Origin: Eledone cirrhosa | Taxonomy: Eukaryota | DNA: 64,000 nt | Assembly: GCA_964016885.1 (NCBI GenBank) | Contig: OZ024743.1 | Coordinates: 251,286,001 to 251,350,000, forward strand | Reading direction: 5' to 3' | Shown: positions 1 to 63,961 of the stretch, piece by piece | Numbering within the stretch: position 1 is the stretch's first letter | Layout: each line of letters starts with the position of its first letter | Translations under genes and position numbers: made by a program | Notes under the pieces: model-generated | What the model was told of the DNA's origin: nothing | The model's database searches: none | The model's input: the letters and a program-made list of their open reading frames with translations, nothing else

Positions 1-3000
1 TTTGATGGAACTAGTGATGTTGGTGATGTTGATGTTGCTGTTGTGGTTTGATGGAACTAGTGATGTTGATGATGTTGATGTTGATGTTGTGGTTTGATGG
101 CACTAGTGATGTTGGTGATGTTGATGTTGCTGATGTGGTTTGATGGAACTAGTTATGTTGGTGATGTTGATGTTGCTGTTGTGGTTTGATGGAACTAGTG
201 ATGTTGGTGATGTTGATGTTGCTGATGTGGTTTGATGGCACTAGTGATGTTGTTGATGTTGATGTTGCTGATGATAGTGATGGCACTAGTGATGTTGGTG
301 ATGTTGATGTTGCTGTTGTGGTTTGATGGAACTAGTGATGTTGGTGATGTTGATGTTGCTGTTGTGGTTTGATGGAACTAGTGATGTTGATGATGTTGAT
401 GTTGCTGATGATAGTGATGGCACTAGTGATGTTGGTGATGTTGATGTTGCTGTTGTGGTTTGATGGAACTAGTGATGTTGGTGATGTTGATGTTGTGGTT
501 TGATGGAACTAGTGATGTTGGTGATGTTGATGTTGTGGTTTGATGGAACTAGTGATGTTGGTGATGTTGATGTTGCTGATGTGGTTTGATGGCACTAGTG
601 ATGTTGTTGATGTTGATGTTGCTGATATGGTTTGATGGAACTAGTGATGTTGGTGATGTTGCTGATGTGGTTTGATGGAACTAGTGATGTTGTTGATGTT
701 GATGTTGCTGATGTGGTTTGATGGAACTAGTGATGTTGGTGATGTTGATGTTGTGGTTTGATGGAACTAGTGATGTTGGTGATGTTGATGTTGTTGATGT
801 GGTTTGATGGCACTAGTGATGTTGTTGATGTTGATGTTGTTGATGTGGTTTGATGGCACTAGTGATGTTGGTGATGTTGATGTTGTTGATGTGGTTTGAT
901 GGCACTAGTGATGTTGTTGATGTTGCTGTTGTGGTTTGATGGAACTAGTGATGTTGGTGATGTTGATGTTGCTGATGTGGTTTGATGGAACTAGTGATGT
1001 TGGTGATGTTGATGTTGTGGTTTGATGGAACTAGTGATGTTGGTGATGATGATGTTGTTGATGTGGTTTGATGGCACTAGTGATGTTGTTGATGTTGCTG
1101 TTGTGGTTTGATGGAACTAGTGATGTTGGTGATGTTGATGTTGCTGATGTGGTTTGATGGAACTAGTGATGTTGGTGATGTTGATGTTGTGGTTTGATGG
1201 AACTAGTGATGTTGGTGATGTTGATGTTGTTGATGTGGTTTGGTGGCACTAGTGATGTTGTTGATGTTGCTGTTGTGGTTTGATGGAACTAGTGATGTTG
1301 GTGATGTTGATGTTGCTGATGTGGTTTGATGGAACTAGTGATGTTGGTGATGTTGATGTTGTGGTTTGATGGAACTAGTGATGTTGGTGATGTTGATGTT
1401 GTTGATGTGGTTTGATGGCACTAGTGATGTTGTTGATGTTGATGTTGCTGATGTGGTTTGATGGAACTAGTGATGTTGGTGATGTTGATGTTGCTGATGT
1501 GGTTTGATGGAACTAGTGATGTTGGTGATGTTGATGTTGTTGATGTGGTTTGATGGCACTAGTGATGTTGTTGATGTTGATGTTGCTGTTGTGGTTTGAT
1601 GGCACTAGTGATGTTGGTGATGTTGCTGATGTGGTTTGATGGAACTAGTGATGTTGGTGATGTTGATGTTGTTGATGTGGTTTGATGGCACTAGTGATGT
1701 TGTTGATGTTGATGTTGCTGTTGTGGTTTGATGGCACTAGTGATGTTGATGATGTTGATGTTGTGGTTCGATGGCACTAGTGATGTTGGTGATGTTGATG
1801 TTGCTGATGTGGTTTGATGGAACTAGTGATGTTGATGATGTTGATGTTGCTGATGTGGTTTGATGGAACTAGTGATGTTGGTGATGTTGCTGATGTGGTT
1901 TGATGGCACTAGTGATGTTGTTGATGTTGCTGATGTGGTTTGATGGCACTAGTGATGTTGATGATGTTGATGTTGTGGTTCGATGGCACTAGTGATGTTG
2001 GTGATGTTGATGTTGCTGATGTGGTTTGATGGAACTAGTGATGTTGATGATGTTGATGTTGCTGATGTGGTTTGATGGAACTAGTGATGTTGGTGATGTT
2101 GCTGATGTGGTTTGATGGAACTAGTGATGTTGGTGATGTTGTTGATGTGGTTTGATGGCACTAGTGATGTTGTTGATGTTGATGTTGCTGTTGTGGTTTG
2201 ATGGCACTAGTGATGTTGATGATGTTGATGTTGTGGTTCGATGGCACTAGTGATGTTGGTGATGTTGATGTTGCTGATGTGGTTTGATGGAACTAGTGAT
2301 GTTGTTGATGTTGATGTTGCTGTTGTGGTTTGATGGAACTAGTGATGTTGGTGATGTTGCTGATGTGGTTTGATGGAACTAGTGATGTTGGTGATGTTGA
2401 TGTTGCTGTTGTGGTTTGATGGAACTAGTGATGTTGGTGATGTTGATGTTGCTGATGTGGTTTGATGGAACTAGTGATGTTGGTGATGTTCATGTTGCTG
2501 TTGTGGTTTGATGGAACTAGTGATGTTGGTGATGTTGATGTTGCTGATGTGGTTTGATGGAACTAGTGATATTGGTGATGTTGATGTTGCTGATGTGGTT
2601 TGATGGCACTAGTGATGTTGTTGATGTTGATGTTGCTGTTGTGGTTTGATGGAACTAGTGATGTTGGTGATGTTGCTGATGTGGTTTGATGGAACTAGTG
2701 ATGTTGGTGATGTTGATGTTGCTGATGTGGTTTGATGGCACTAGTGATGTTGATGATGTTGATGTTGCTGTTGTGGTTTGATGGAACTAGTGATGTTGGT
2801 GATGTTGCTGATGTGGTTTGATGGAACTAGTGATGTTGGTGATGTTGATGTTGCTGTTGTGGTTTGATGGAACTAGTGATGTTGGTGATGTTGATGTTGC
2901 TGTTGTGGTTTGATGGCACTAGTGATGTTGGTGATGTTGATGTTGCTGTTGTGGTTTGATGGAACTAGTGATGTTGGTGATGTTGCTGATGTGGTTTGAT

Positions 3001-6000
3001 GGAACTAGTGATGTTGGTGATGTTGATGTTGCTGATGTGGTTTGATGGAACTAGTGATGTTGGTGATGTTGCTGTTGTGGTTTGATGGAACTAGTGATGT
3101 TGGTGATGTTGATGTTGCTGATGTGGTTTGATGGAACTAGTGATGTTGGTGATGTTGATGTTGCTGTTGTGGTTTGATGGAACTAGTGATGTTGGTGATG
3201 TTGCTGATGTGGTTTGATGGAACTAGTGATGTTGGTGATGTTGATGTTGCTGATGTGGTTTGATGGAACTAGTGATGTTGGTGATGTTGCTGATGTGGTT
3301 TGATGGAACTAGTGATGTTGGTGATGTTGATGTTGCTGATGTGGTTTGATGGAACTAGTGATGTTGGTGATGTTGATGTTGCTGATGTGGTTTGATGGAA
3401 CTAGTGATGTTGGTGATGTTGATGTTGCTGTTGTGGTTTGATGGAACTAGTGATGTTGGTGATGTTGATGTTGCTGATGTGGTTTGATGGAACTAGTGAT
3501 GTTGGTGATGTTGCTGATGTGGTTTGATGGAACTAGTGATGTTGGTGATGTTGATGTTGCTGATGTGGTTTGATGGAACTAGTGATGTTGGTGATGTTGC
3601 TGATGTGGTTTGATGGAACTAGTGATGTTGGTGATGTTGATGTTGCTGATGTGGTTTGATGGAACTAGTGATGTTGGTGATGTTGATGTTGTTGATGTGG
3701 TTTGATGGCACTAGTGATGTTGTTGATGTTGATGTTGCTGTTGTGGTTTGATGGCACTAGTGATGTTGATGATGTTGATGTTGTGGTTCGATGGCACTAG
3801 TGATGTTGGTGATGTTGATGTTGCTGATGTGGTTTGATGGAACTAGTGATGTTGATGATGTTGATGTTGCTGATGTGGTTTGATGGAACTAGTGATGTTG
3901 GTGATGTTGCTGATGTGGTTTGATGGCACTAGTGATGTTGTTGATGTTGCTGATGTGGTTTGATGGCACTAGTGATGTTGATGATGTTGATGTTGTGGTT
4001 CGATGGCACTAGTGATGTTGGTGATGTTGATGTTGCTGATGTGGTTTGATGGAACTAGTGATGTTGATGATGTTGATGTTGCTGATGTGGTTTGATGGAA
4101 CTAGTGATGTTGGTGATGTTGCTGATGTGGTTTGATGGAACTAGTGATGTTGGTGATGTTGTTGATGTGGTTTGATGGCACTAGTGATGTTGTTGATGTT
4201 GATGTTGCTGTTGTGGTTTGATGGCACTAGTGATGTTGATGATGTTGATGTTGTGGTTCGATGGCACTAGTGATGTTGGTGATGTTGATGTTGCTGATGT
4301 GGTTTGATGGAACTAGTGATGTTGTTGATGTTGATGTTGCTGTTGTGGTTTGATGGAACTAGTGATGTTGGTGATGTTGCTGATGTGGTTTGATGGAACT
4401 AGTGATGTTGGTGATGTTGATGTTGCTGTTGTGGTTTGATGGAACTAGTGATGTTGGTGATGTTGATGTTGCTGATGTGGTTTGATGGAACTAGTGATGT
4501 TGGTGATGTTGCTGATGTGGTTTGATGGAACTAGTGATGTTGGTGATGTTGATGTTGCTGTTGTGGTTTGATGGAACTAGTGATGTTGGTGATGTTGATG
4601 TTGCTGTTGTGGTTTGATGGCACTAGTGATGTTGGTGATGTTGATGTTGCTGTTGTGGTTTGATGGAACTAGTGATGTTGGTGATGTTGCTGATGTGGTT
4701 TGATGGAACTAGTGATGTTGGTGATGTTGATGTTGCTGATGTGGTTTGATGGAACTAGTGATGTTGGTGATGTTGCTGTTGTGGTTTGATGGAACTAGTG
4801 ATGTTGGTGATGTTGATGTTGCTGATGTGGTTTGATGGAACTAGTGATGTTGGTGATGTTGATGTTGCTGTTGTGGTTTGATGGAACTAGTGATGTTGGT
4901 GATGTTGCTGATGTGGTTTGATGGAACTAGTGATGTTGGTGATGTTGATGTTGCTGATGTGGTTTGATGGAACTAGTGATGTTGGTGATGTTGCTGATGT
5001 GGTTTGATGGAACTAGTGATGTTGGTGATGTTGATGTTGCTGATGTGGTTTGATGGAACTAGTGATGTTGGTGATGTTGATGTTGCTGATGTGGTTTGAT
5101 GGAACTAGTGATGTTGGTGATGTTGATGTTGCTGTTGTGGTTTGATGGAACTAGTGATGTTGGTGATGTTGATGTTGCTGATGTGGTTTGATGGAACTAG
5201 TGATGTTGGTGATGTTGCTGATGTGGTTTGATGGAACTAGTGATGTTGGTGATGTTGATGTTGCTGATGTGGTTTGATGGAACTAGTGATGTTGGTGATG
5301 TTGCTGATGTGGTTTGATGGAACTAGTGATGTTGGTGATGTTGATGTTGCTGATGTGGTTTGATGGAACTAGTGATGTTGGTGATGTTGATGTTGCTGAT
5401 GTGGTTTGATGGAACTAGTGATGTTGGTGATGTTGATGTTGCTGTTGTGGTTTGATGGAACTAGTGATGTTGGTGATGTTGATGTTGCTGATGTGGTTTG
5501 ATGGAACTAGTGATGTTGGTGATGTTGATGTTGCTGATGTGGTTTGATGGAACTAGTGATGTTGGTGATGTTGCTGATGTGGTTTGATGGAACTAGTGAT
5601 GTTGGTGATGTTGATGTTGCTGATGTGGTTTGATGGAACTAGTGATGTTGGTGATGTTGATGTTGCTGTTGTGGTTTGATGGCACTAGTGATGTTGGTGA
5701 TGTTGATGTTGCTGATGTGGTTTGATGGAACTAGTGATGTTGGTGATGTTGCTGATGTGGTTTGATGGAACTAGTGATGTTGGTGATGTTGATGTTGCTG
5801 ATGTGGTTTGATGGAACTAGTGATGTTGGTGATGTTGATGTTGCTGTTGTGGTTTGATGGAACTAGTGATGTTGGTGATGTTGCTGATGTGGTTTGATGG
5901 AACTAGTGATGTTGGTGATGTTGCTGATGTGGTTTGATGGAACTAGTGATGTTGGTGATGTTGATGTTGCTGATGTGGTTTGATGGAACTAGTGATGTTG

Positions 6001-7806
6001 GTGATGTTTATGTTGCTGATGTGGTTTGATAGAACTAGTGATGATGGTGATGTTGATGTTGCTGTTGTGGTTTGATGGAACTAGTGATGTTGGTGATGTT
6101 GATGTTGCTGATGTGGTTTGATGGAACTAGTGATGTTGGTGATGTTGATGTTGCTGATGTGGTTTGATGGAACTAGTGATGTTGGTGATGTTGCTGATGT
6201 GGTTTGATGGAACTAGTGATGTTGGTGATGTTGATGTTGCTGATGTGGTTTGATGGAACTAGTGATGTTGGTGATGTTGATGTTGCTGTTGTGGTTTGAT
6301 GGAACTAGTGATGTTGGTGATGTTGCTGATGTGGTTTGATGGAACTAGTGATGTTGGTGATGTTGATGTTGCTGATGTGGTTTGATGGAACTAGTGATGT
6401 TGGTGATGTTGATGTTGCTGTTGTGGTTTGATGGAACTAGTGATGTTGGTGATGTTGCTGATGTGGTTTGATGGAACTAGTGATGTTGGTGATGTTGCTG
6501 ATGTGGTTTGATGGAACTAGTGATGTTGGTGATGTTGATGTTGCTGATGTGGTTTGATGGAACTAGTGATGTTGGTGATGTTGATGTTGCTGATGTGGTT
6601 TGATGGAACTAGTGATGTTGGTGATGTTGATGTTGCTGTTGTGGTTTGATGGAACTAGTGATGTTGGTGATGTTGCTGATGTGGTTTGATGGAACTAGTG
6701 ATGTTGGTGATGTTGCTGATGTGGTTTGATGGAACTAGTGATGTTGGTGATGTTGATGTTGCTGATGTGGTTTGATGGAACTAGTGATGTTGGTGATGTT
6801 GATGTTGCTGATGTGGTTTGATGGAACTAGTGATGTTGGTGATGTTGATGTTGCTGTTGTGGTTTGATGGCACTAGTGATGTTGGTGATGTTGATGTTGC
6901 TGATGTGGTTTGATGGAACTAGTGATGTTGGTGATGTTGCTGATGTGGTTTGATGGAACTAGTGATGTTGGTGATGTTGCTGATGTGGTTTGATGGAACT
7001 AGTGATGTTGGTGATGTTGATGTTGCTGATGTGGTTTGATGGAACTAGTGATGTTGGTGATGTTGATGTTGCTGATGTGGTTTGATGGAACTAGTGATGT
7101 TGGTGATGTTGATGTTGCTGTTGTGGTTTGATGGAACTAGTGATGTTGGTGATGTTGATGTTGTGGTTTGATGGAACTAGTGATGTTGGTGATGTTGATG
7201 TTGCTGATGTGGTTTGATGGAACTAGTGATGTTGGTGATGTTGCTGATGTGGTTTGATGGAACTAGTGATGTTGGTGATGTTGATGTTGCTGATGTGGTT
7301 TGATGGAACTAGTGATGTTGATGATGTTGATGTTGCTGATGTGGTTTGATGGAACTAGTGATGTTGGTGATGTTGATGTTGCTGATGTGGTTTGATGGAA
7401 CTAGTGATGTTGGTGATGTTGATGTTGCTGATGTGGTTTGATGGAACTAGTGATGTTGGTGATGTTGATGTTGCTGATGTGGTTTGATGGAACTAGTGAT
7501 GTTGGTGATGTTGCTGATGTGGTTTGATGGAACTAGTGATATTGGTGATGTTGATGTTGCTGATGTGGTTTGATGGAACTAGTGATGTTGGTGATGTTGA
7601 TGTTGCTGATGTGGTTTGATGGAACTAGTGATGTTGGTGATGTTGATGTTGCTGATGTGGTTTGATGGAACTAGTGATGTTGGTGATGTTGCTGATGTGG
7701 TTTGATGGAACTAGTGATGTTGGTGATGTTGATGTTGCTGATGTGGTTTGATGGAACTAGTGATGTTGATGATGTTGATGTTACTGATGTGGTTTGATGG
7801 AACTAG
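1..7806. repeat. Tandem minisatellite, main unit GTGGTTTGATGG(A/C)ACTAGTGATGTTGGTGATGTTGATGTTGCTGAT (46 bp) with 40- and 37-bp deletion variants; runs off the left edge
   Basis: Direct reading. Every unit contains ACTAGT. The unit length is not a multiple of 3, and the ORF track has no long ORF here. Confidence 0.97.
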
Positions 7807-8252
7807 TCATGTTGCTGATTATGATAGTGATGTTGGTTATGATGGAGATGTTTGTTGTGATGTTGGTGATAATAGATGTTGTTGGTACTGGTGATATTGG
7901 CGATGTTGCTAATGTTGCTGAAATTGCTGTTGGTGTTGCTGCTGAGAACAATGCTGCAACATTTAATATTTGTAACGGCTTTAAACAGAAATGTAAGACC
8001 GTTCTTAATGTAATCATTCCACCTATTATGCAATGACTTTCAGTGTTCTCAATAGCACATTACAGTAAAGACAATAGTTTGAATTATTTCTGCTCCACAT
8101 TGAACCTATAGCCCTTTTACCTCCTCCTGCATACTCTACCCTCACAGTCTCAAATATTGACACTCCGATATTATATATATATATATATACAGAATATGCA
8201 CACACACACATAATCTCAAATACAGCCAGTCTGACATTATATATATATATAT

Positions 8253-8445
8253 AACGAAGGAATTGTGTGTGGTAAGGAACCAGATGGACCATAACGCACC
8301 AGAGTACTCAATACTTAGGGTAGTAGAGTGGGTAATAGGAAAAGGTATGACCCTGACGGCAGAACTCAAGCCGTTTCGACGGCTATTTATAGAAATAGCC
8401 GTCGAAACGGCTTGAGCTCTGCCGTCGGTGTCATAGCTTTTCCTA
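8253..8445 (-). mobile_element. Short fold-back element of the 16082-17932 family: palindrome 8336-8445 carrying the HHR 3' half, plus 3' tail 8253-8335 next to (TA)n
   Basis: 8253-8390 aligns with 16082-16200. The arms TAGGAAAAGGTATGACCC...GACGGCTATTT and AAATAGCCGTC...GTCATAGCTTTTCCTA are inverted. Contains GAAACGGC-loop-GCCGTC. Confidence 0.85.
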
Positions 8446-10376
8446 TCATCATCATCATCAGGTTTAGCGTCCGTGTTCCACGCTTGCATGGGTTTGGACG
8501 GGGGTTTTCCCACTTGAGGCAAGAGTGGTTGTCTTGCTCGCATAGGACTGTCTGGCGGGTTTTCTACAGTTGGATGCCCTTCCTAACACCAACCACATTT
8601 ACAGTGTGGGGCTGGGAGGTTTTTACCGTGTTGCCTACACGGCCACATTACAGCGTGGACTGTCTGGCGGGTTTTCTACAGCTGGATGCCCTTCCTAACA
8701 CCAACCACATTTACAGTGTGGGGCTGGGAGGTTTTTACCGTGTTGCACACACGGCCACATTTACAGCGTGGACTGTGTGTTTTTTGTCGTGACACCTACA
8801 CGATCTCATTTGTTTCGGCCTGGATGTTGTGGGACCAACATAACTTTACATTGAAAGGGGCGGTGTGGGTGGGGTGGAGGTGGTGGGACGGGGGTGTGTT
8901 TTGATAGAGATGCCTACTGACTGTAGTAGGTTTTTACTTTGTATTTAGGTAAGGCGGGTCTTCTCTATTACTGAGTACCGCCAAAGGTCTCGGTCCAGTG
9001 ACATTGTCTTGGAGAGGTGTAAGCGTGTGAGGTCGGAATTTATCAGCTCGTCCCATGTTTTTCTGGGTCTGCCTACTCCGTGGCTACCGTCTATCTTTAT
9101 TGCCCTGCACTTTGTTATACAGCTGTCGTCTTTCATGCGCATCACGTGACCGTACCAACATAGCCTTCTCTCGAGTAAACAACATCTGATCCCTCTTATT
9201 TCTAATTTTTTCCTTAGTTCGTTTATGCTTTTCCGTTCACGTATATTACTATTGCACATCCAGCGGAGCATGCAAGCTTCGTTCCTCTCTAGTCTGCGTA
9301 TATCCTCTGCACACAATGCCCAGGTCTCACTGCCATGCAGCATTGCTGTTCGTATGCAGGCATCGTATAACCTGCCTTTCATTTTTAGGGAGAACCCTCT
9401 AGCGGCTAATAGTGGTATAAGCTCTCTGAACTTTTTCCATCCAGTTCTGACTCTAGCTACTGTACTTTCAGAGCACCCTCCCCTACTGCTGATTTTGTCA
9501 CCCAGATAACGGAAGCTGTCCACTATTTCTATAGAACCCTCTGCGCAGTTGAAGGAGCTAGTATTTGTGGGCACTTGCTGCTACTTATTGCACTAGAGCA
9601 CCGGCCACATGTAAAATCTATGTTCTTAGTTAGCTTACCTGTGATCCCACTACATCTTTTATGCACCCATACTTTGCATTTGGGACATAAAATGGAGTTT
9701 CTACCTACGCCTTTCCTACACACTGAGCATGGCCATTTCCCAGATGGGACCGCCGCCTTATTTTCTTTCCTACAAACTAGAACTTTAGTCTTAGCCAGGT
9801 TAATTTTAAGGCCTTTTGATTCTAGGCCGTGCTTCCATGTTTGGAATTTCTTCTCTAGTTCGGTCATTGATTCAGCTATGAGCGTTAGATCATCTGCGTA
9901 TAGGAGTTCCCATGGGCAGCCGGTCTTGAACTCCTCTGTTATAGCCTGAAGGGCAATAATAAATAGTAGGGAGCTAAGAACAGAGCCCTGATGGACACCA
10001 ACTTTTACGCTAAACTCTTCACTATATTCGTTGTTAATTCTAACCTTACTGACTGTTTTTTTATACATGGCTTGTATAGCTCTCACAAGCCATTCGTCAA
10101 CACCTAGTTTTCTAAGAGACCACCAGATAATGGAACGGGGGACTCTGTCGAAGGCTTTCTCCAAGTCGACGAAAGCTAAGTATAGGGGTTTACTTTTAGC
10201 TAGGTACTTCTCCTGTAGTTGTCGTACAATGAAAAGAGCGTCTGTGGTACTTTTGCCTGACACAAACCCGAACTGCATTTCATCTAGATCAATTCTCTCT
10301 CTGATTAGTTGCGCTATTACTTTTTCCGTGACCTTCATGACCTGGTCGATTAATTTAATGCCTCTATAGTTACTCC
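8446..10376 (-). mobile_element. 5'-truncated RTE-clade LINE with (GAT)n tail and a 112-bp tandem duplication in the 3' UTR (units starting at 8545 and 8657)
   Basis: Nearly identical to the 3' part of the 21922-24938 copy. RT motifs are present. Confidence 0.95.
8945..10376 (-). pseudogene. Frameshifted RTE reverse transcriptase (ORFs 9529-10389 and 8945-9574)
   Basis: Motifs NYRGIKL, QFGF, FVDLEKAFD, GVHQGSVLS, LLYADD and YLG. One frameshift near 9570 relative to the longer copy. Confidence 0.93.
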
Positions 10377-10745: not shown

Positions 10746-11028
10746 TTATTAAAAGCAACAAAAGACTGCACTGAAAACCTTCTTTAAAATGTTAATTCCG
10801 TAGGAATATACAGATTTCAATGGCACTTTCAATGGGATATTGAAATATGTATATTTTTGCAGGATTTAATTTTAAAGAAAGATTCCAGTCCAGCCTTCTG
10901 TTTTTTTTAATGAATATTTAATTCCATTTCTGCACCAGCTGCAGGATACCACATCTATGGTGGATGATTTACATAACATTGAGTGCTTTAATTTACTCCA
11001 TCGTTTACTAACCAGAATCACCAGTTCT
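10741..11028 (+). mobile_element. Degenerate fold-back element next to (TA)n: palindrome ~10741-10918 centred near 10826, with an HHR-like 3' half (GAAATATGTATA) and a tail containing GAGTGCT
   Basis: TTCTTTAAAAT...GAATATACAGATTTCAAT is inverted to ATTGAAATATGTATATTTTTG...ATTTTAAAGAA, with mismatches. GAGTGCT at 10981. Confidence 0.6.
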
Positions 11029-11394: not shown

Positions 11395-11760
11395 AGGTGT
11401 TAAGGTGTAAATTAATTGTATTCATAGGTGGTATGCCGAATGAGCACTCAATGTTCATGGGGAGTATCAATAGTATTAATATATAAAGGAACAAAGAATC
11501 AGAGTTGCATCATATAGATATCTAATTACATATTACATATGTTTCACTGTCGATCAGTTCGAGGAGCGACCTATTAATGATCGAACCTGACTCTGGAATC
11601 TGAAGCTCCTCAGATATGTTTTAACATGTAGACTCACAGCTACAGGTTCAATCATGAATTGATCGTTCCTCGAGCTGATGGACAGTGAAACATATGTAAT
11701 ATGTAATTAAATATGTATATGATGCAACTCTGATTCTTTGTTCCTTTATATGTTAATACT
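11395..11760 (-). mobile_element. Fold-back element: palindrome 11472-11760 with HHR 3' half (GAAAC ATAT GTA), plus 3' tail 11395-11471 next to (TA)n
   Basis: About 125-bp inverted arms, from AGTATTAATATATAAAGGAACAAAG to CTTTGTTCCTTTATATGTTAATACT. Microsatellites lie on both sides. Confidence 0.8.
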
Positions 11761-12639: not shown

Positions 12640-12908
12640 GTATCTCTGGATAACTTGAACCGTTAAGGTATATTATCCTTTGACATGTCAAATATTTATA
12701 AAAGATTTAGTATTTTATCTGATGATAACGTACCAAAATTTTTGGTACCCTTGAAATATATTTTAATAGAATAAATATGGTTTTATAAATATAGTTTCCA
12801 TTTATTTAATATCATTGAATACTTACTCCAGAAAACTGTCGAGTGCTCTGAATCAGTTATAAACATCTATATTTGTTGGATTTCCAACAAATTAAATATC
12901 TCTTCTAC
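12640..12908 (+). mobile_element. Single, diverged copy of the HHR element family at 30547-30966
   Basis: Shares TATTTTATCTGATGA...CCCTTGAAATAT...AATAAATATGGTTTTATAAATATAGTTTCCATTT and the TTACTCC...GAGTGCT tail with 30770-30966. Confidence 0.8.
12711..12773 (+). ncRNA. Type I hammerhead ribozyme, partly degenerate
   Basis: Stem I TATTTTAT/ATAGAATA. CTGATGA at 12719. Stem II GTACCAAA/TTTGGTAC. GAAA at 12753. Confidence 0.6.
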
Positions 12909-13447: not shown

Positions 13448-13991
13448 TCACTCCTCATCCTTAACCCATCTGAAGAAGGATATTTTTAAGCGATGTGTAC
13501 AACTTATCGCTGTTTCAGCTTTGCTGTTGATGAGCTCGTGGGGTGCAGTTATGATGTGGTAGAGCTCCACGAGGCAAAGATCGCATTTCCTCTTGAAGTT
13601 GTACGGTGCAGCCCTGCCGACAATCTCCCAGTGCGTGGAGAAGCTGGTGTTTAAGTCCTTTAGTGATGTAATATAGTCCACGAGCGAAGTGGAGTGCCTT
13701 AGTTTTCTATTTGTGAAAGAGTGGAGATGTGTTCGAAACCTAATTTTGAACGGGCTGGAGGTAGCCCCTATATAATGTTTAACGATATTGTGGCTAGTAA
13801 TAGTGCATCTATATATAACCCTATCAGTCAAGCAGTATCCTCTAAGGGGGCAGCGTCCTCTGTCGCGGCAGTTGCAATTTCCGTCGCGGTTCCGTCTATT
13901 TCCCACGGTAAGGCTATCATTGTTGCTGCCTACGTTGTTACCTACGCTACCGCAGCTGTCGTTAGCACCATTACAACCAACAGCACGCGGC
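13448..13991 (-). CDS. Penelope-like GIY-YIG endonuclease, C-terminal part of the PLE ORF (apparently intact arm; RT part missing)
   Basis: CNCRDRGRCPLRGYC (CxCx5C), VIY...YIG, FKIRFRTHLHSF, WEIV, KCDLCLVE, INSKAE..SCTH. Confidence 0.88.
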
Positions 13992-14086: not shown

Positions 14087-14630
14087 CCGCGTGCTGTGGG
14101 TTGTAATGGTGCTAACGACAGCTGCGGTAGCGTAGGCAACAACGTAGGCAGCAACAATGATAGCCTTACGGTGGAAAATAGACGGAACCGCGACGGAAAT
14201 TTCAACTGCCGCGACAGAGGACGCTTCCCCCTTAGAGGATACTGCTTGTCTGATAGGGTTATATATAGATGCACTATTACTAGCCACAATATCGTTAAAC
14301 ATTATATAGGGGCTATCTCCGGCCCGTTCAAAATTATATTTCGAACACATCTCCACTCTTTCACAAATAGAAAACTAAGGCACTCCACTTCGCTCGCGGA
14401 GTACATCACATCACTAAAGGACTTAAACATCAGCTTCTCCACGCACTGGGAGATTGTCGGCAGGGCTGCACCGTACAACTTCAAGAGGAAATGCGATCGT
14501 TGCCTCATGGAGCTCTACCACATCATAACTGCACCCCCACGAGCTCATCAACAGCAGAGCTGAAACAGCGATAAGTTGTACACATCGCTTAAAAATATCC
14601 TTCTTCAGATGGGTTAAGGATGAAGAGTGA
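14087..14630 (+). pseudogene. Second, mutated copy of the GIY-YIG domain (Cys-to-Phe changes and a frameshift near 14535)
   Basis: ORF 14072-14563 reads FNCRDRGRFPL and FKIIF. An extra base in the C-run shifts the frame. Confidence 0.85.
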
Positions 14631-15006: not shown

Positions 15007-15221
15007 TGTTTTAAATAAACATGTTTTAACGGTCTATTCTCCGATTTCTTACTTTCCCACGTGTTTACGCTCTGCTAACTCTCTAGCCCACTAAATATTA
15101 ACACTTCCAATATTTAATACTGCCGGCACTAGTATCGAGCACCTTTGGCATACGCTACTTGGTAAATAACTATATGTATCACCTATCCTCCCCTTTTTTT
15201 CTGTCTCTCGATACGTAAATA

Positions 15222-16060: not shown

Positions 16061-16081
16061 TATATATATATATATATATAA

Positions 16082-17932
16082 TGAAGGAATTGTGATAAGG
16101 AACCAGATGGACCATAACGCACCAGAGTAATCAATACTTTGGGTAATAGGAAAAAGTATGACCCCGACGGCAGAGCTCAAGCCGTTTCGACGGCCATTTC
16201 TGGACTAAATTAGAATTTTTAGCCTGGTGAATAAATAGCCGAACTTGTCAATGGGTACTTCCTTATATGGGAAGATTGTAGTTGTCGAGAGGATTGGTCA
16301 AAATTTGTTGTAAACACAAATAAGTCTATCATGGCATTTGGTGGGAGGTAGGGGTGGATGAACTTGCCTGTAGAACAATGAGGGAGTGAGTGGAGCCGGT
16401 CAAGCATTGAAAGTGATATGTATACAGCAGATTCTAAGGATAGTGTATGAAAAGTCGAAAAATTGTTCTGGAGAAAATGGAGGAGGGAAGTTATAGAATG
16501 GGTAATTCGAATGAGAGTAAAAGACAATAAAAAATAATAGAAAGAAATCTAAAAAAAATATATAGTGAGAAATGAATAATAAAAAAAAAAAACTGGTAGG
16601 GTCTAGAAACAGCTGCTATGATTAGTAGGTGTTGCTTGTAAGGCCAAAGCTAAAGAAAAGGTTAATAAGTTGAGAATGGAAAATACTAAATAAGAAATTG
16701 TAGAAGTGGGTAGTGAAAATATATAAAGCAAACTTTTCAGGGGTCTAACACAGCTGCTAAAAATAGTTAGTAAAGCGTATTCCGCCAAATCTATCTTAAA
16801 ATTACAGGGGTGGGGGGTACTGAGTCTACAGAGGCCCGATGGGCTGCATCGGGGTAGGCGAAAGGGGAAAAACAGACAAGGAAGAAGATCAGGGGTGGAA
16901 GGAAGTGATAGGATGAGACAGAGGGAACAAGAAAACATAGAGGAAAAGAAAAAAAAAAAAGAAAAGAGGTACATCTATTCTTTTCCTCTATGTTTTCTTC
17001 TTCCCCCTGTCTCATCCTATCACTTCCTTCCACCCTTGATCTTCTTCCTCGTCTGTTTTTCCCCTTTCGCCTACCCCGATGCAGCCCATCAGGCCTCTGT
17101 AGCCTCAATACCCCCCACCCCTGTAATTTTAAGATAGAATTGGCCGAATAAGCTTTACTAACTATTTATAGCAGATGTGTTAGACCCCTGTAATTTTGAA
17201 TCATTTTTGTTACTACTCCATTTCTACAATTTCTATATATATATATATTTTTTCTATTCTCAACTTATTAACCTGTAATTGTAAGATAGCATTGGTGGAA
17301 TATGCTTTACTAACTATTTTTAGCAGCTGTGTTAGACCCCTGAAAAGTTTGCGTTATATTTTTTCACTACCCACTTCTACAATTTCTTATTTAGTATTTT
17401 CCATTCTCAACTTATTAACCTTTTCTTTAGCTTTGGCCTTACAAGCAACACCTACTAATCATAGCAGCTGTTTCTAGACCCTACCAGTTTTTTTTTTTAT
17501 TATTCATTTCTCACTATATATTTTTTTTAGATTTCTTTCTATTATTTTTTATTGTCTCTTACTCTCATTCGAATTACCCATTCTATAACTTCCCTCCTCC
17601 ATTTTCTCCAGAACAATTTTTCGACTTTTCATACACTATCCTTAGAATCTGCTGTATACATATCACTTTCAATGCTTGACCGGCTCCACTCACTCCCTCA
17701 TTGTTCTACAGGCAAGTTCATCCACCCCTACCTCCCATCAAATGCCATGATAGACTTATTTGTGTTTACAACAAATTTTGACCAATCCTCTTGACAACTA
17801 CAATCTTCCCATATAAGGAAGTACCCATTGACAAGTTCGGCTATTTATTCACCAGGCTAAAAATTCTAATTTAGTCCAGAAATAGCCGTCGAAACGGCTT
17901 GAACTCTGCCGTCGGGGTCATACGTTTTCCTA
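16082..17932 (-). mobile_element. Non-coding palindromic HHR element (pLTR-like): arms 16147-~16950 and ~16975-17932, 3' tail 16082-16146, flanked by (TA)n
   Basis: Near-perfect inverted arms. The right arm has an extra diverged ~150-bp tandem copy at 17120-17272. No credible ORF. Confidence 0.9.
17821..17920 (+). ncRNA. Type I hammerhead ribozyme, U3-A8 variant, long stem II (mirror copy at 16159-16258 on the minus strand)
   Basis: ACCCA-TTGACAA-GTTCGGCTATTT..AAATAGCCGTC-GAAACGGC..GCCGTC^GGGGT. Predicted cleavage after 17913. Confidence 0.75.
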
Positions 17933-18883
17933 TATATATATATATATAGAGAGAGAGAAAGAGAGAAAGAGAGAGAGATGCATGTTAGTATAAGTATAAA
18001 TATATTATCAGTAGAAAATGGCCACAGTTACATAAGACAAATAGCTGAGAGATAGTGTGAGAAAAAAGGAAAGATTGGAGGAGATGAGAATAGAATTGGG
18101 GGCACAGACGAAAAGATAAATAGAAGAAATTTGAGGAATTTGAGGAATTTAATCAACCCCAGTACTTATATAAAGAAATATAGTTTTATCAAAACAGGTG
18201 TAGATAGAGAGGGAGATACATTGAATTAGCCATTCCAACTCATATAGCTGACTGGGGGGGGGGGGGTTCTCTGTCTCAATAGTAGCAAGTACATAGTGGG
18301 GTTGGTGACCCAGTTCTGCTGGAATAAGTGTCACTGCATATCGATTCCCTGATGCCCATTATTCTACAAATCAGTCTAATAATCTAACTTCATTCAGTTG
18401 TTTAATTAAATCTCTTTAGATGGAGTAAGCTATGTGCAGTAGGTAAATGCATCCCACCCAGGAGAAGATGTCTCCCATTTAATGAATGTCACAAAACTTG
18501 GAGATAGAGACCAGCCCAGAGGAACAGAGACCATTATCATTCTAAACAATCTAAATTATCTAATGTCATTAGATCTTTTTGGATAAGGTAAGCTGCCTTC
18601 TGTAGGTGAATATATCCTATTCAGAGGAAGATCACCACCATTTTACATGGGTTGAAAGCTAAGCAGTTTTTGGATGACACCCACAACAATTGTATTATTA
18701 TCATGACATGCTAATCAACTGAATGGTATAAGAATTGGAGATAGATATCCACCCAGATGGAGTATTATATGTCAATGCTCACCTACTTTTCTTTTCAATG
18801 GTGCCCCTCCTCACATCAGATTTAGAAGACTTACAGTGATATGCTTGTTCCAAAACAGTGCCTTCGAATTATTGTAAATTAGA

Positions 18884-30502: not shown

Positions 30503-30546
<44 letters not shown>

Positions 30547-30554
<8 letters not shown>

Positions 30555-30965
30555 ATATTAACAAATGGAAACTATATTTATAAAACCATATTTATTTCAT
30601 TATACATATTTCAAGGGCCACCAGAGCAAACTATGGTGCACTTTCATCAGATAAAATATAATATAGGTTAGTTTTATAAATAAATATTGACATACCCAGG
30701 AGATTCCAACCAGAATGGTTGCATTTTTTAAGGGTATGTCAATATTTATTATAAAACTAACCTATATTATATTTTATCTGATGAAAGTGCACCATAGTTT
30801 GCTCTGGTGGCCCTTGAAATATGTATAATGAAATAAATATGGTTTTATAAATATAGTTTCCATTTGTTAATATATTGTATATTTACTCCAATAATGTGAG
30901 TGCTTTATATCAGTTATAAAAATATTTTGCTTGTTGTATCCCAACAAATTAAATATAACCTCTAC

Positions 30966-30966
<1 letters not shown>
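30547..30966 (+). mobile_element. Fold-back HHR element: arms 30547-30697 / 30732-30881, 3' tail 30882-30966, within (TA)n
   Basis: About 150-bp near-perfect inverted arms, each with a full HHR core. Confidence 0.9.
30770..30835 (+). ncRNA. Minimal type I hammerhead ribozyme (mirror copy at 30593-30658 on the minus strand)
   Basis: Stem I ATTTTAT/ATGAAAT. CTGATGA. Stem II around CACCA/TGGTG. GAAA-TATGTA-TA^. Confidence 0.75.
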
Positions 30967-31020
<54 letters not shown>

Positions 31021-36343: not shown

Positions 36344-36894
36344 TTTTGAGTTTATGTTGGTTGTATACCAACACCTCAGTATGCAGGCTGGAGCACTCGA
36401 CGAAGTGCGCAGGTTGGTTGTATACCAACACCTCAGTATGCAGGCTGGAGCACTCGACGAAGTGCGCAGGTTGGTTTGGTTACTCCGGAGTAGTGTAAAA
36501 TAAAGTTAAATAAAAGTCAAATGATTAAAATTTAGCTTCGTTTATTACTGCTATATATATTTCAGTGACAGCCATCTTTGGCTGTGACCTCTTCAGGCAG
36601 TTTGAATTAGTATGGTATAGACAAGTACATATGTTGTTTAGGTGTATGATATTGTCAATACTCTGATATGCCCAGTTCCTTGTTGGGTTGTTCCCCAGTG
36701 AATTAACAACCCAACAAGGAACTGGGCATATCAGAGTATTGACAATATCATACACCTAAACAACATATGTACTTGTCTATACCATACTAATTCAAACTGC
36801 CTGAAGAGGTCACAGCCAAAGATGGCTGTCACTGAAATATATATAGCAGTAATAAACGAAGCTAAATTTTAATCATTTGACTTTTATTTAACTT

Positions 36895-63788: not shown

Positions 63789-63961
63789 TCAGAATGGATG
63801 CGGCAAAAGCATGTTAAACCATTACTCACTAGAGTGGGTAACATGAAAAATATTCAGGACCCCGATGGCTAAGCTCCAGCCGTTTCAACGGCTGCATCTG
63901 CTTGTACAGATCTAGCTGTTGAAATGGCTGGAGCTCAGCCATCGGGGTCCTGAATTTTTCA
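63789..63961 (-). mobile_element. Short fold-back element: palindrome 63844-63961 with HHR 3' half, 3' tail 63789-63843, (TA)n on both sides
   Basis: GAAATGGCTG GAGCT CAGCCATC^GGGGTCC is mirrored on both strands. Related to 8336-8445. Confidence 0.82.

Follow-up and report, generated by a model that had tools for sequence, protein, structure and literature searches.

A bulged stem present twice per element lies just beyond the places where copies of Hydra-clade Penelope-like elements end

Introduction

At positions 30543-30966 of the 64,000-nucleotide stretch of Eledone cirrhosa DNA analyzed here (the window), two truncated copies of a Penelope-like element (PLE) lie head to head, and only one of them continues into a tail. 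The question raised by this locus is what determines where each copy ends. An inverted truncated copy and a one-sided tail belong to the published PLE layout (PMC8557442, PMC3846280), and the origin of the tail and of the inverted ends has been an open question for about twenty years. In the one in vitro study, two internal start sites of reverse transcription were found, and the signal that sets them was not isolated (PMC11167929). The papers cited here were available in part, and statements about their contents refer to those parts. A sequence-only reading of the window had drawn attention to a heptamer, GAGTRCT or a close variant, in seven tails; it proposed that this heptamer is a conserved cis signal for the PLE enzyme, or a determinant of where the inverted arm stops. 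In the current study, the heptamer, its surroundings and the ends of related copies were examined in the window, in the rest of the genome and in metagenome homologues.

Results

The element at 30543-30966 and related sites in the window

The window is rich in (TA)n tracts, and the element at 30543-30966 is a head-to-head pair in (TA)n with a hammerhead core in each arm. The short arm (30543-30679, minus strand) is an inverted 5'-truncated copy, 99% complementary, that begins in (TA)n at end site 1, immediately ahead of stem 1. The long arm with its tail (30690-30966, plus strand) is a sense 5'-truncated copy of Hydra family F2, a family linked to a Hydra ORF. Our own core scan placed a minimal hammerhead ribozyme core at 30778-30827 (+), with a mirror copy at 30601-30650 (-); Rfam gave no hammerhead match for the core at 30778-30827. 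End site 1, consisting of the last bases common with the short arm (30877-30882, +), is TA-like, and its junction is ambiguous by up to 5 nt. Stem 1 follows at 30885-30904 (+), with ACTC at 30885-30888, an inner helix and loop, and GAGT at 30898-30901 plus GCT; compared with its family, this copy is 3 nt short in the inner helix and bulge. Farther along the tail, a GTTG..CAAC hairpin at 30933-30945 (+) is a family-level feature outside the clade-wide motif, and the tail ends at end site 2 (30966-30971, +), which merges into (TA)n. An Rfam scan of the window returned 129 matches, all below the gathering score and none over 30882-30966.

All seven heptamers of the sequence-only reading were found in place. 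That reading had assigned them to unrelated families, whereas they fall into five, with sites 12841 and 30898 in one family and sites 8303 and 63821 in another. It had also placed them beyond an inverted arm, but 10981 and 12841 have no such arm. Stem 1 is intact in family F0 at 8303-8329 (-; arms 8335-8388 and 8393-8446) and in an F2 subfamily copy without an inverted arm at 12825-12847 (+), and it carries a 30-nt insert in family F38 at 36449-36491 (-). Relative to their relatives, the copies at four sites are damaged (30898, 11443, 10981 and 63821). The stem at 11443-11465 (-; arms 11472-11589 and 11643-11760) has a 5-nt deletion, and the one at 10921-10987 (+) is a decayed stem 1 of an old family without an inverted arm, in which the 5' box reads ATTC and two of three relatives have ACTC. 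A doubtful site with an F0-type 5' box lies at 63821-63835 (-; arms 63848-63900 and 63907-63959); it departs from the family sequence right after ACTCTA, which may reflect a deletion or chance. One motif copy had been missed, namely stem 1 of family F37 at 15069-15143 (+), which has the GCTC/GAGC form and a 62-nt insert. Two head-to-head remnants of the F37 Hydra endonuclease, with the CxCx5C linker present, lie at 13466-13879 (-) and 14198-14533 (+).

Other features of the window were also recorded. A 57-nt exact tandem duplication in the F38 tail (36356-36476) repeats the 3' box at 36392-36398, and the close relative L010 has a single copy. In a large F0 head-to-head pair at 16075-17933, a short deletion has removed the 5' box of stem 1 from the tailed arm. 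A satellite array of 178 copies of ~46-nt units occupies positions 1-7819.

A bulged stem at a fixed distance from the arm end

Elements were collected from the window and from 120 evenly spaced 10-kb stretches of the genome (3.0 Gb, 1796 contigs) by requiring an inverted pair that has (TA)n at one of its ends and a tail at its other end; the motif was not used. The 73 elements obtained formed 39 arm-plus-tail clusters. In these tails, the motif of Hydra-clade PLEs has the form of a bulged stem, RYUC-[helix]-loop-[helix]-UN-GARY-RCU, in which the 5' box is followed by a short inner helix, a variable insert (4-69 nt across genome clusters and metagenome families), a 2-nt bulge beginning with U, and the 3' box.

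The expectation of a fixed position relative to the arm end was borne out, in that 17 of the 39 clusters have the 5' box at -1 to +8 nt relative to the arm end; corresponding counts were 0.42 (maximum 2) in shuffled tails, 0 in the upstream window and 1 in the reverse complement. Because the descriptor was derived from these same tails, the count of 17 is somewhat favourable, and the metagenome set described below served as the outside test. Of the 22 clusters without the motif at the arm end, three are nested F0 copies, some are junk, one has a motif at +18, and others are genuine motif-less families. By association, these positions connect the motif with where the inverted arm stops, as the sequence-only reading had suggested. 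Occurrence of this composite motif is far above chance; the evidence is weak for the bare heptamer, which was found 19 times on the two strands of the window, mostly outside these tails, against 11.7 times in shuffles (maximum 18). The heptamer was accordingly rejected as a marker, being mostly background. Three of the background GAGTGCT heptamers belong to a dispersed SINE-like repeat (8545-8776, 40179, 43809 and 52767).

Pairing of ACTC with GAGT, also proposed from the window, is supported because GCTC/GAGC, GTTC/GAAC and TCTC/GAGA variants exist, that is, the outer pairs co-vary. Fold strength was weak (z-scores of -1.34 to +0.23), and the outer stem was part of the minimum-energy fold in four of seven cases. 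G-U and A-C mismatches in the stems numbered 6 and 5, respectively, so that neither strand is favoured, nor RNA over single-stranded DNA. The GTTG..CAAC hairpin noticed in three tails is indeed present there (12875, 30933 and 36360-36372), but the hairpins at 12875 and 30933 belong to a single family and the feature is not general; it was found in 3 of 39 clusters and in 1 of 33 metagenome families and was rejected as a shared signal.

Motif-bearing elements belong to the Hydra clade

A GIY-YIG search gave 150 matches, and most of the 50 that were fetched were Neptune-type. A link of the motif to Neptune-type families was considered and rejected: the motif-bearing tails follow another endonuclease, that of the Hydra clade, whose protein has DKT, CxCx5C, CxxC and CxH and no DKG. 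These are marks of the Hydra clade (PMC8557442). The motif was seen only in this clade; the one Neptune-type tail identified (cluster 5 of 39) was without it, and DKG, absent from the motif-bearing families, is present in the other PLE families of this genome. Loci L111-L159 represent no fewer than five families of Neptune-type PLEs, which have CX2-5CxxC fingers and open frames of up to 1096 aa; one of these families has a TTGATAA-type hammerhead core.

The Hydra-clade elements are about 3 kb long and have a single ORF encoding a reverse transcriptase plus a GIY-YIG endonuclease at the C terminus. Open frames measured 713 aa in family H1 and ~717 aa in F0, the latter within a 3.53-kb tandem unit; the F2 frame was broken in the copy read. 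A Pfam search with the H1 and F0 proteins returned no family. The CxCx5C linker was found in H1, F0, F2, the F37 remnant in the window and 71 of 76 aligned proteins. DKT was present in F0, F2 and three of four H1 copies (NKT in L202), DK[TS] in 75 and DKG in none of the 76 aligned proteins. The endonuclease lacks CCHH and has CxxC and CxH. At the N terminus, H1, F0 and F2 have RWR, differing from the RWK given for the Hydra clade (PMC8557442), which was seen in 49 of the 76. In a quick tree, H1, F0 and 25 homologues stood apart from three Neptune-type proteins of this genome with a support of 100. A hammerhead and insertion in (TA)n are also features of these families, with cores at 30778 and 36596 in the window and variant forms in H1 and F0. 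The hammerhead-like cores in the terminal repeats of the latter two start with TTGAGAA, with a very long helix II (L393, F0), and with CAGAAGA (L202, H1), and by their sequence they are putative variants of the hammerhead catalytic core.

A second stem lies beyond the tail end

At the repeat-to-ORF junction of H1, two stems were found, each 2-3 nt past one of the two places where copies end. From H1, a second stem after the tail end was predicted and then searched for in F2, F0, F38 and F37. Because the search patterns consisted of the tail end and the 5' box only, the 3' box and the ORF are independent support. For F2, the family of site 30898, junctions made up 14 of the 17 matches; the 3' box was intact in 12 and a Hydra ORF match was present in 13. 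F0 (site 8303) gave 413 matches; among 15 fetched, 13 had the 3' box and 10 a same-strand ORF match. Of 57 matches for F38 (site 36449), 12 were fetched, and these comprised 10 junctions, with an ORF match in nine. All eight fetched among the 23 matches for F37 (site 15069) were junctions. Patterns written backwards gave 0 matches each time in these four families.

Full-length Hydra-clade elements have the motif twice between hammerhead and start codon, with a stem-to-stem spacing of 78-99 nt in this genome and 54-82 nt in metagenome families. In full-length F2 copies, stem 2 begins 3 nt beyond end site 2 and is followed by the start codon; in F2 and F37, stem 2 has one inner pair only. Full-length F0 units repeat in tandem every ~3.53 kb at G000:C1 91476610-91487269 and 437200341-437210966, and such arrays are the kind of locus that would give junction-spanning RNA.

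Copies mostly end before stem 1 or stem 2, and pairs join one of each

Copy ends were counted for four families at all sampled loci of this genome. Site 1 accounted for 156 ends and site 2 for 128, another 27 lay elsewhere and 28 were read-through; 284 of 311 ends lay before stem 1 or stem 2, mostly by 2-6 nt. Modal distances from end to stem were 2-5 nt, with 6 nt at site 2 of F37, and at end site 1 of the family of 30543-30966 the mode was 2 nt (34 of 46 measured ends). Most end sites have 2-6 TA-like bases, which could belong to the element or the target. When this slack is allowed for, a spacer of 5-6 nt fits 8/8 sites of the four families. A 5-7 nt spacer fits 10 of 14 single-copy elements, not the other 4, and 6 nt also fits site 2 of F37. 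Beyond most ends, TA or CA repeats follow.

Head-to-head pairs with both ends at a stem combined site 1 with site 2 in 74 of 74 cases, 22 of them from loci picked with a tail query, and none was symmetric; under independent site choice, about half of the pairs would be expected to be symmetric. A further 18 head-to-head pairs of the full set have an off-site or read-through end, and in the random DNA sample alone the counts were 19 site 1 plus site 2, none symmetric and 4 other. Given that copies end before stem 1 or stem 2, and that pairs join one of each, the tail equals the stem-to-stem distance. At loci L381 and L382 (G000:C2, near 7215683-7215821), the F38 tail is present in tandem with a period of ~104 nt and with site 2 joined back to site 1; this arrangement suggests either several successive starts or jumping of the template between these sites.

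Two ends and lopsided pairs were likewise observed in families without the motif (10/10 and 6/6). The motif is thus not needed for a tail in PLEs generally; since motif-less families obey the pair rule, the asymmetry belongs to PLEs at large, and the motif is how the Hydra clade marks the sites. Clusters 1, 3, 4, 8 and 20 (e.g. L041:613-1046) are abundant and have fixed tails of 33-56 nt without the motif; pairs were strictly long plus short in clusters 1 and 8, and pair counts for cluster 3 were swamped by low-complexity matches. A repeated signal past the tail of motif-less cluster 1 was sought, and the four matches obtained were unrelated.

The doubled motif in other organisms

Aligned homologues yielded 78 metagenome loci, of which 41 had an ORF start and at least 150 nt upstream, representing 33 Hydra families. 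The last 200 nt before the ORF were scanned with a descriptor that asks for no pairing. Exactly two motif copies were found in 24 of the 33 families, one in seven and none in two, compared with 0.01 (two copies) and 0.92 (one copy) in shuffles, which ignore relatedness between families, and with 2 of 230 ORF-interior windows. The metagenome stem consensus was GCTC..TNGAGCACT. Spacers between the two motifs shared 28% identity; by association, the retention of the motif across Hydra-clade PLEs with spacers this divergent upholds the earlier proposal of a conserved cis signal. In 27 of 31 families, the distance between stem 2 and the aligned start of the ORF was 24-70 nt.

The inner helix, which was not used in selection, was assessed in the 44 unambiguous copies of 55. 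A MAFFT alignment left the variable loop ungapped, and pairs were therefore counted on anchored positions. Watson-Crick pairs occurred at the first three positions in 41/44, 27/42 and 19/31 copies, compared with 23.4, 12.6 and 8.0 after shuffling, and slid registers gave 24-31 of 132 pairs against 92 in the true register. The signal holds in stem 1 alone and is weaker in stem 2. Moreover, 23 rows of metagenome 3' copies were examined; 7 ran to the contig end and 4 were cross-family, and the rest represented eight distinct copies, seven of which end 0-4 nt before a stem and one in the hammerhead.

Six published Hydra consensuses were inspected by eye (PMC8557442), and the motif was clear in three, degenerate in two and absent in one. 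The Hydra-1_Ajap consensus contains both stems, its start being 2 nt ahead of stem 1, and Hydra-2_Ajap and Hydra-2_Amil have stem 1 in their 3' tails. Hydra-1_Crog and Hydra-1_Obim show degenerate forms only, and Hydra-1_Amil has none in its partial consensus.

Discussion

Hydra-clade PLEs have two bulged stems with copies ending mostly 2-6 bases ahead of them, and we consider it probable that the motif is a binding site on the RNA by which the element's protein is kept in place for reverse transcription to begin within the RNA just upstream. Binding to RNA is the likeliest reading because the protein of the green anole Poseidon element cuts and extends both strands, and its two start sites, both internal, bound the tail (PMC11167929). 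Several results speak against this reading, namely the weak folding of the stems, the even balance of G-U and A-C mismatches, the single inner pair in stem 2 of F2 and F37, the 22 clusters in which the motif is missing at the arm end, and the four single-copy elements that do not fit the spacer. A read-through RNA from a tandem unit would span the repeat-to-ORF junction, and the element's protein would bind the conserved CUC/UNGAG-RCU face of the stem. The endonuclease would nick (TA)n, and the freed DNA end would pair with the few U/A bases just upstream of the stem. Copying would then run away from the bound stem, which for that reason would never be copied itself. Synthesis begun at stem 2 would include the tail and stem 1, and synthesis begun at stem 1 would leave an end without a tail. 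If both target strands were cut, with one start per stem, a lopsided head-to-head insertion like that at 30543-30966 would result. More tentatively, a putative dimer of the Hydra protein may grip both stem-loops of one RNA, each subunit measuring about six bases upstream and priming from one cut target strand, so that a single event would write both arms.

A quite different use of the motif would be as DNA, with the GIY-YIG endonuclease recognizing single-stranded cDNA or an extruded hairpin and cutting a few bases away while resolving an intermediate. Craig et al. regard resolution by the endonuclease as the most likely origin of the tail (PMC8557442), and according to PMC11167929, DNA recognition by the Drosophila virilis enzyme required the tail; the mismatch counts do not favour the RNA strand, and the near-palindromic 3' box of some families would also agree with such a role. 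We nevertheless regard it as unlikely, given that tail ends match reverse transcription start sites in the one active PLE tested (PMC11167929), that a bulged stem whose insert varies from 4 to 69 nt is better matched to a folded single strand than to a duplex, and that stem 2 is missing from the finished insertion. Two sharp end classes would equally result if the motif directed a cut in the RNA upstream of each stem, by a host nuclease or an element protein, and ordinary target-primed reverse transcription began at the new 3' ends. A stem with an unpaired 3' trinucleotide does resemble a processing signal. Such processing is nonetheless rather improbable: ends 2-6 nt from the stem vary by family in step with the TA-like bases, a single cut RNA leaves the rule of one end per site unexplained, and the anole element used unprocessed RNA and started internally (PMC11167929).

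The position of stem 2 shortly before the start codon, within the distances to the ORF given above, would fit stems that serve translation or transcription of the nearby ORF, their match to the copy ends being a by-product of a compact 5' region. This seems very improbable, as both ends track both stems within a few bases although the stem-to-stem spacing varies among families. We give the least credence to antisense self-priming, which was proposed for head-to-head palindromes in rotifer PLEs (Arkhipova et al. 2013, PMC3846280) and would make head-to-head insertions with the stems acting on the antisense strand, a strand choice that the mismatch counts leave undecided. The hammerhead, both stems and the ORF lie on one strand in a fixed order, and self-priming accounts for the inner junction but not for two fixed outer ends in (TA)n.

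The elements themselves, their tail and the inverted arrangement were known before. Like the C-terminal EN+ PLEs of the Hydra clade described by Craig et al. (2021, PMC8557442), the present families combine a ~710-aa single ORF, DKT, the CxCx5C linker, CxxC and CxH with a hammerhead, (TA)n insertion, an inverted truncated copy and a one-sided tail. The tails in that report, in which the text available names no motif, are 30-40 bp, whereas the stems here are 54-99 nt apart. Poseidon PAc of the green anole (Frangieh et al. 2024, PMC11167929) likewise has two internal reverse transcription start sites bounding the tail, cuts and extends both target strands, uses an AT-rich target and starts beside a stem-loop, and a dimer was predicted by its authors. 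Its starts, however, lie 111-118 nt inside the ORF at an AC-rich stem-loop without homology to the target, unlike the Hydra-clade sites, which are upstream of the ORF and mostly have TA-like bases; the PAc RNA stretch in Fig. S1B of that paper, inspected by eye, was without the motif. Non-LTR retrozymes (Li et al. 2026, bioRxiv 10.64898/2026.07.22.740005) share short hammerhead-bearing repeats derived from PLE terminal repeats. Whereas those are tandem non-autonomous units, the window copies are 5'-truncated ends of coding families, and the available text of the preprint describes no end-setting motif. No description of the present motif was found in the literature, including the available parts of PMC8557442, PMC11167929, PMC4209133, PMC3846280 and the retrozyme preprint; figures, supplements, the PAc sequence, Repbase or subscription papers could hold one. 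The motif is a real, clade-wide cis signal in a known family, apparently undescribed so far.

In several systems, namely the telomerase template boundary element, the R2 3' UTR and hepadnavirus epsilon, the point at which copying begins or stops is set by a small RNA structure bound to protein. The element described here differs from these in being doubled and in lying 3' of the start point, and no sequence relationship is claimed. If the dimer reading is true, the closest relatives of telomerase would have an RNA element that positions the template and could be moved onto any RNA; if portable, it would offer a way to aim a telomerase-related reverse transcriptase at an internal point of a chosen RNA. 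The motif also defines element boundaries for annotating Hydra PLEs, and as a short doubled motif, conserved across the clade, that predicts both ends within a few bases, it specifies exact mutations to test. For the biology of these elements, the motif likely tells the element's enzyme where copying starts, which would explain the one-sided tail.
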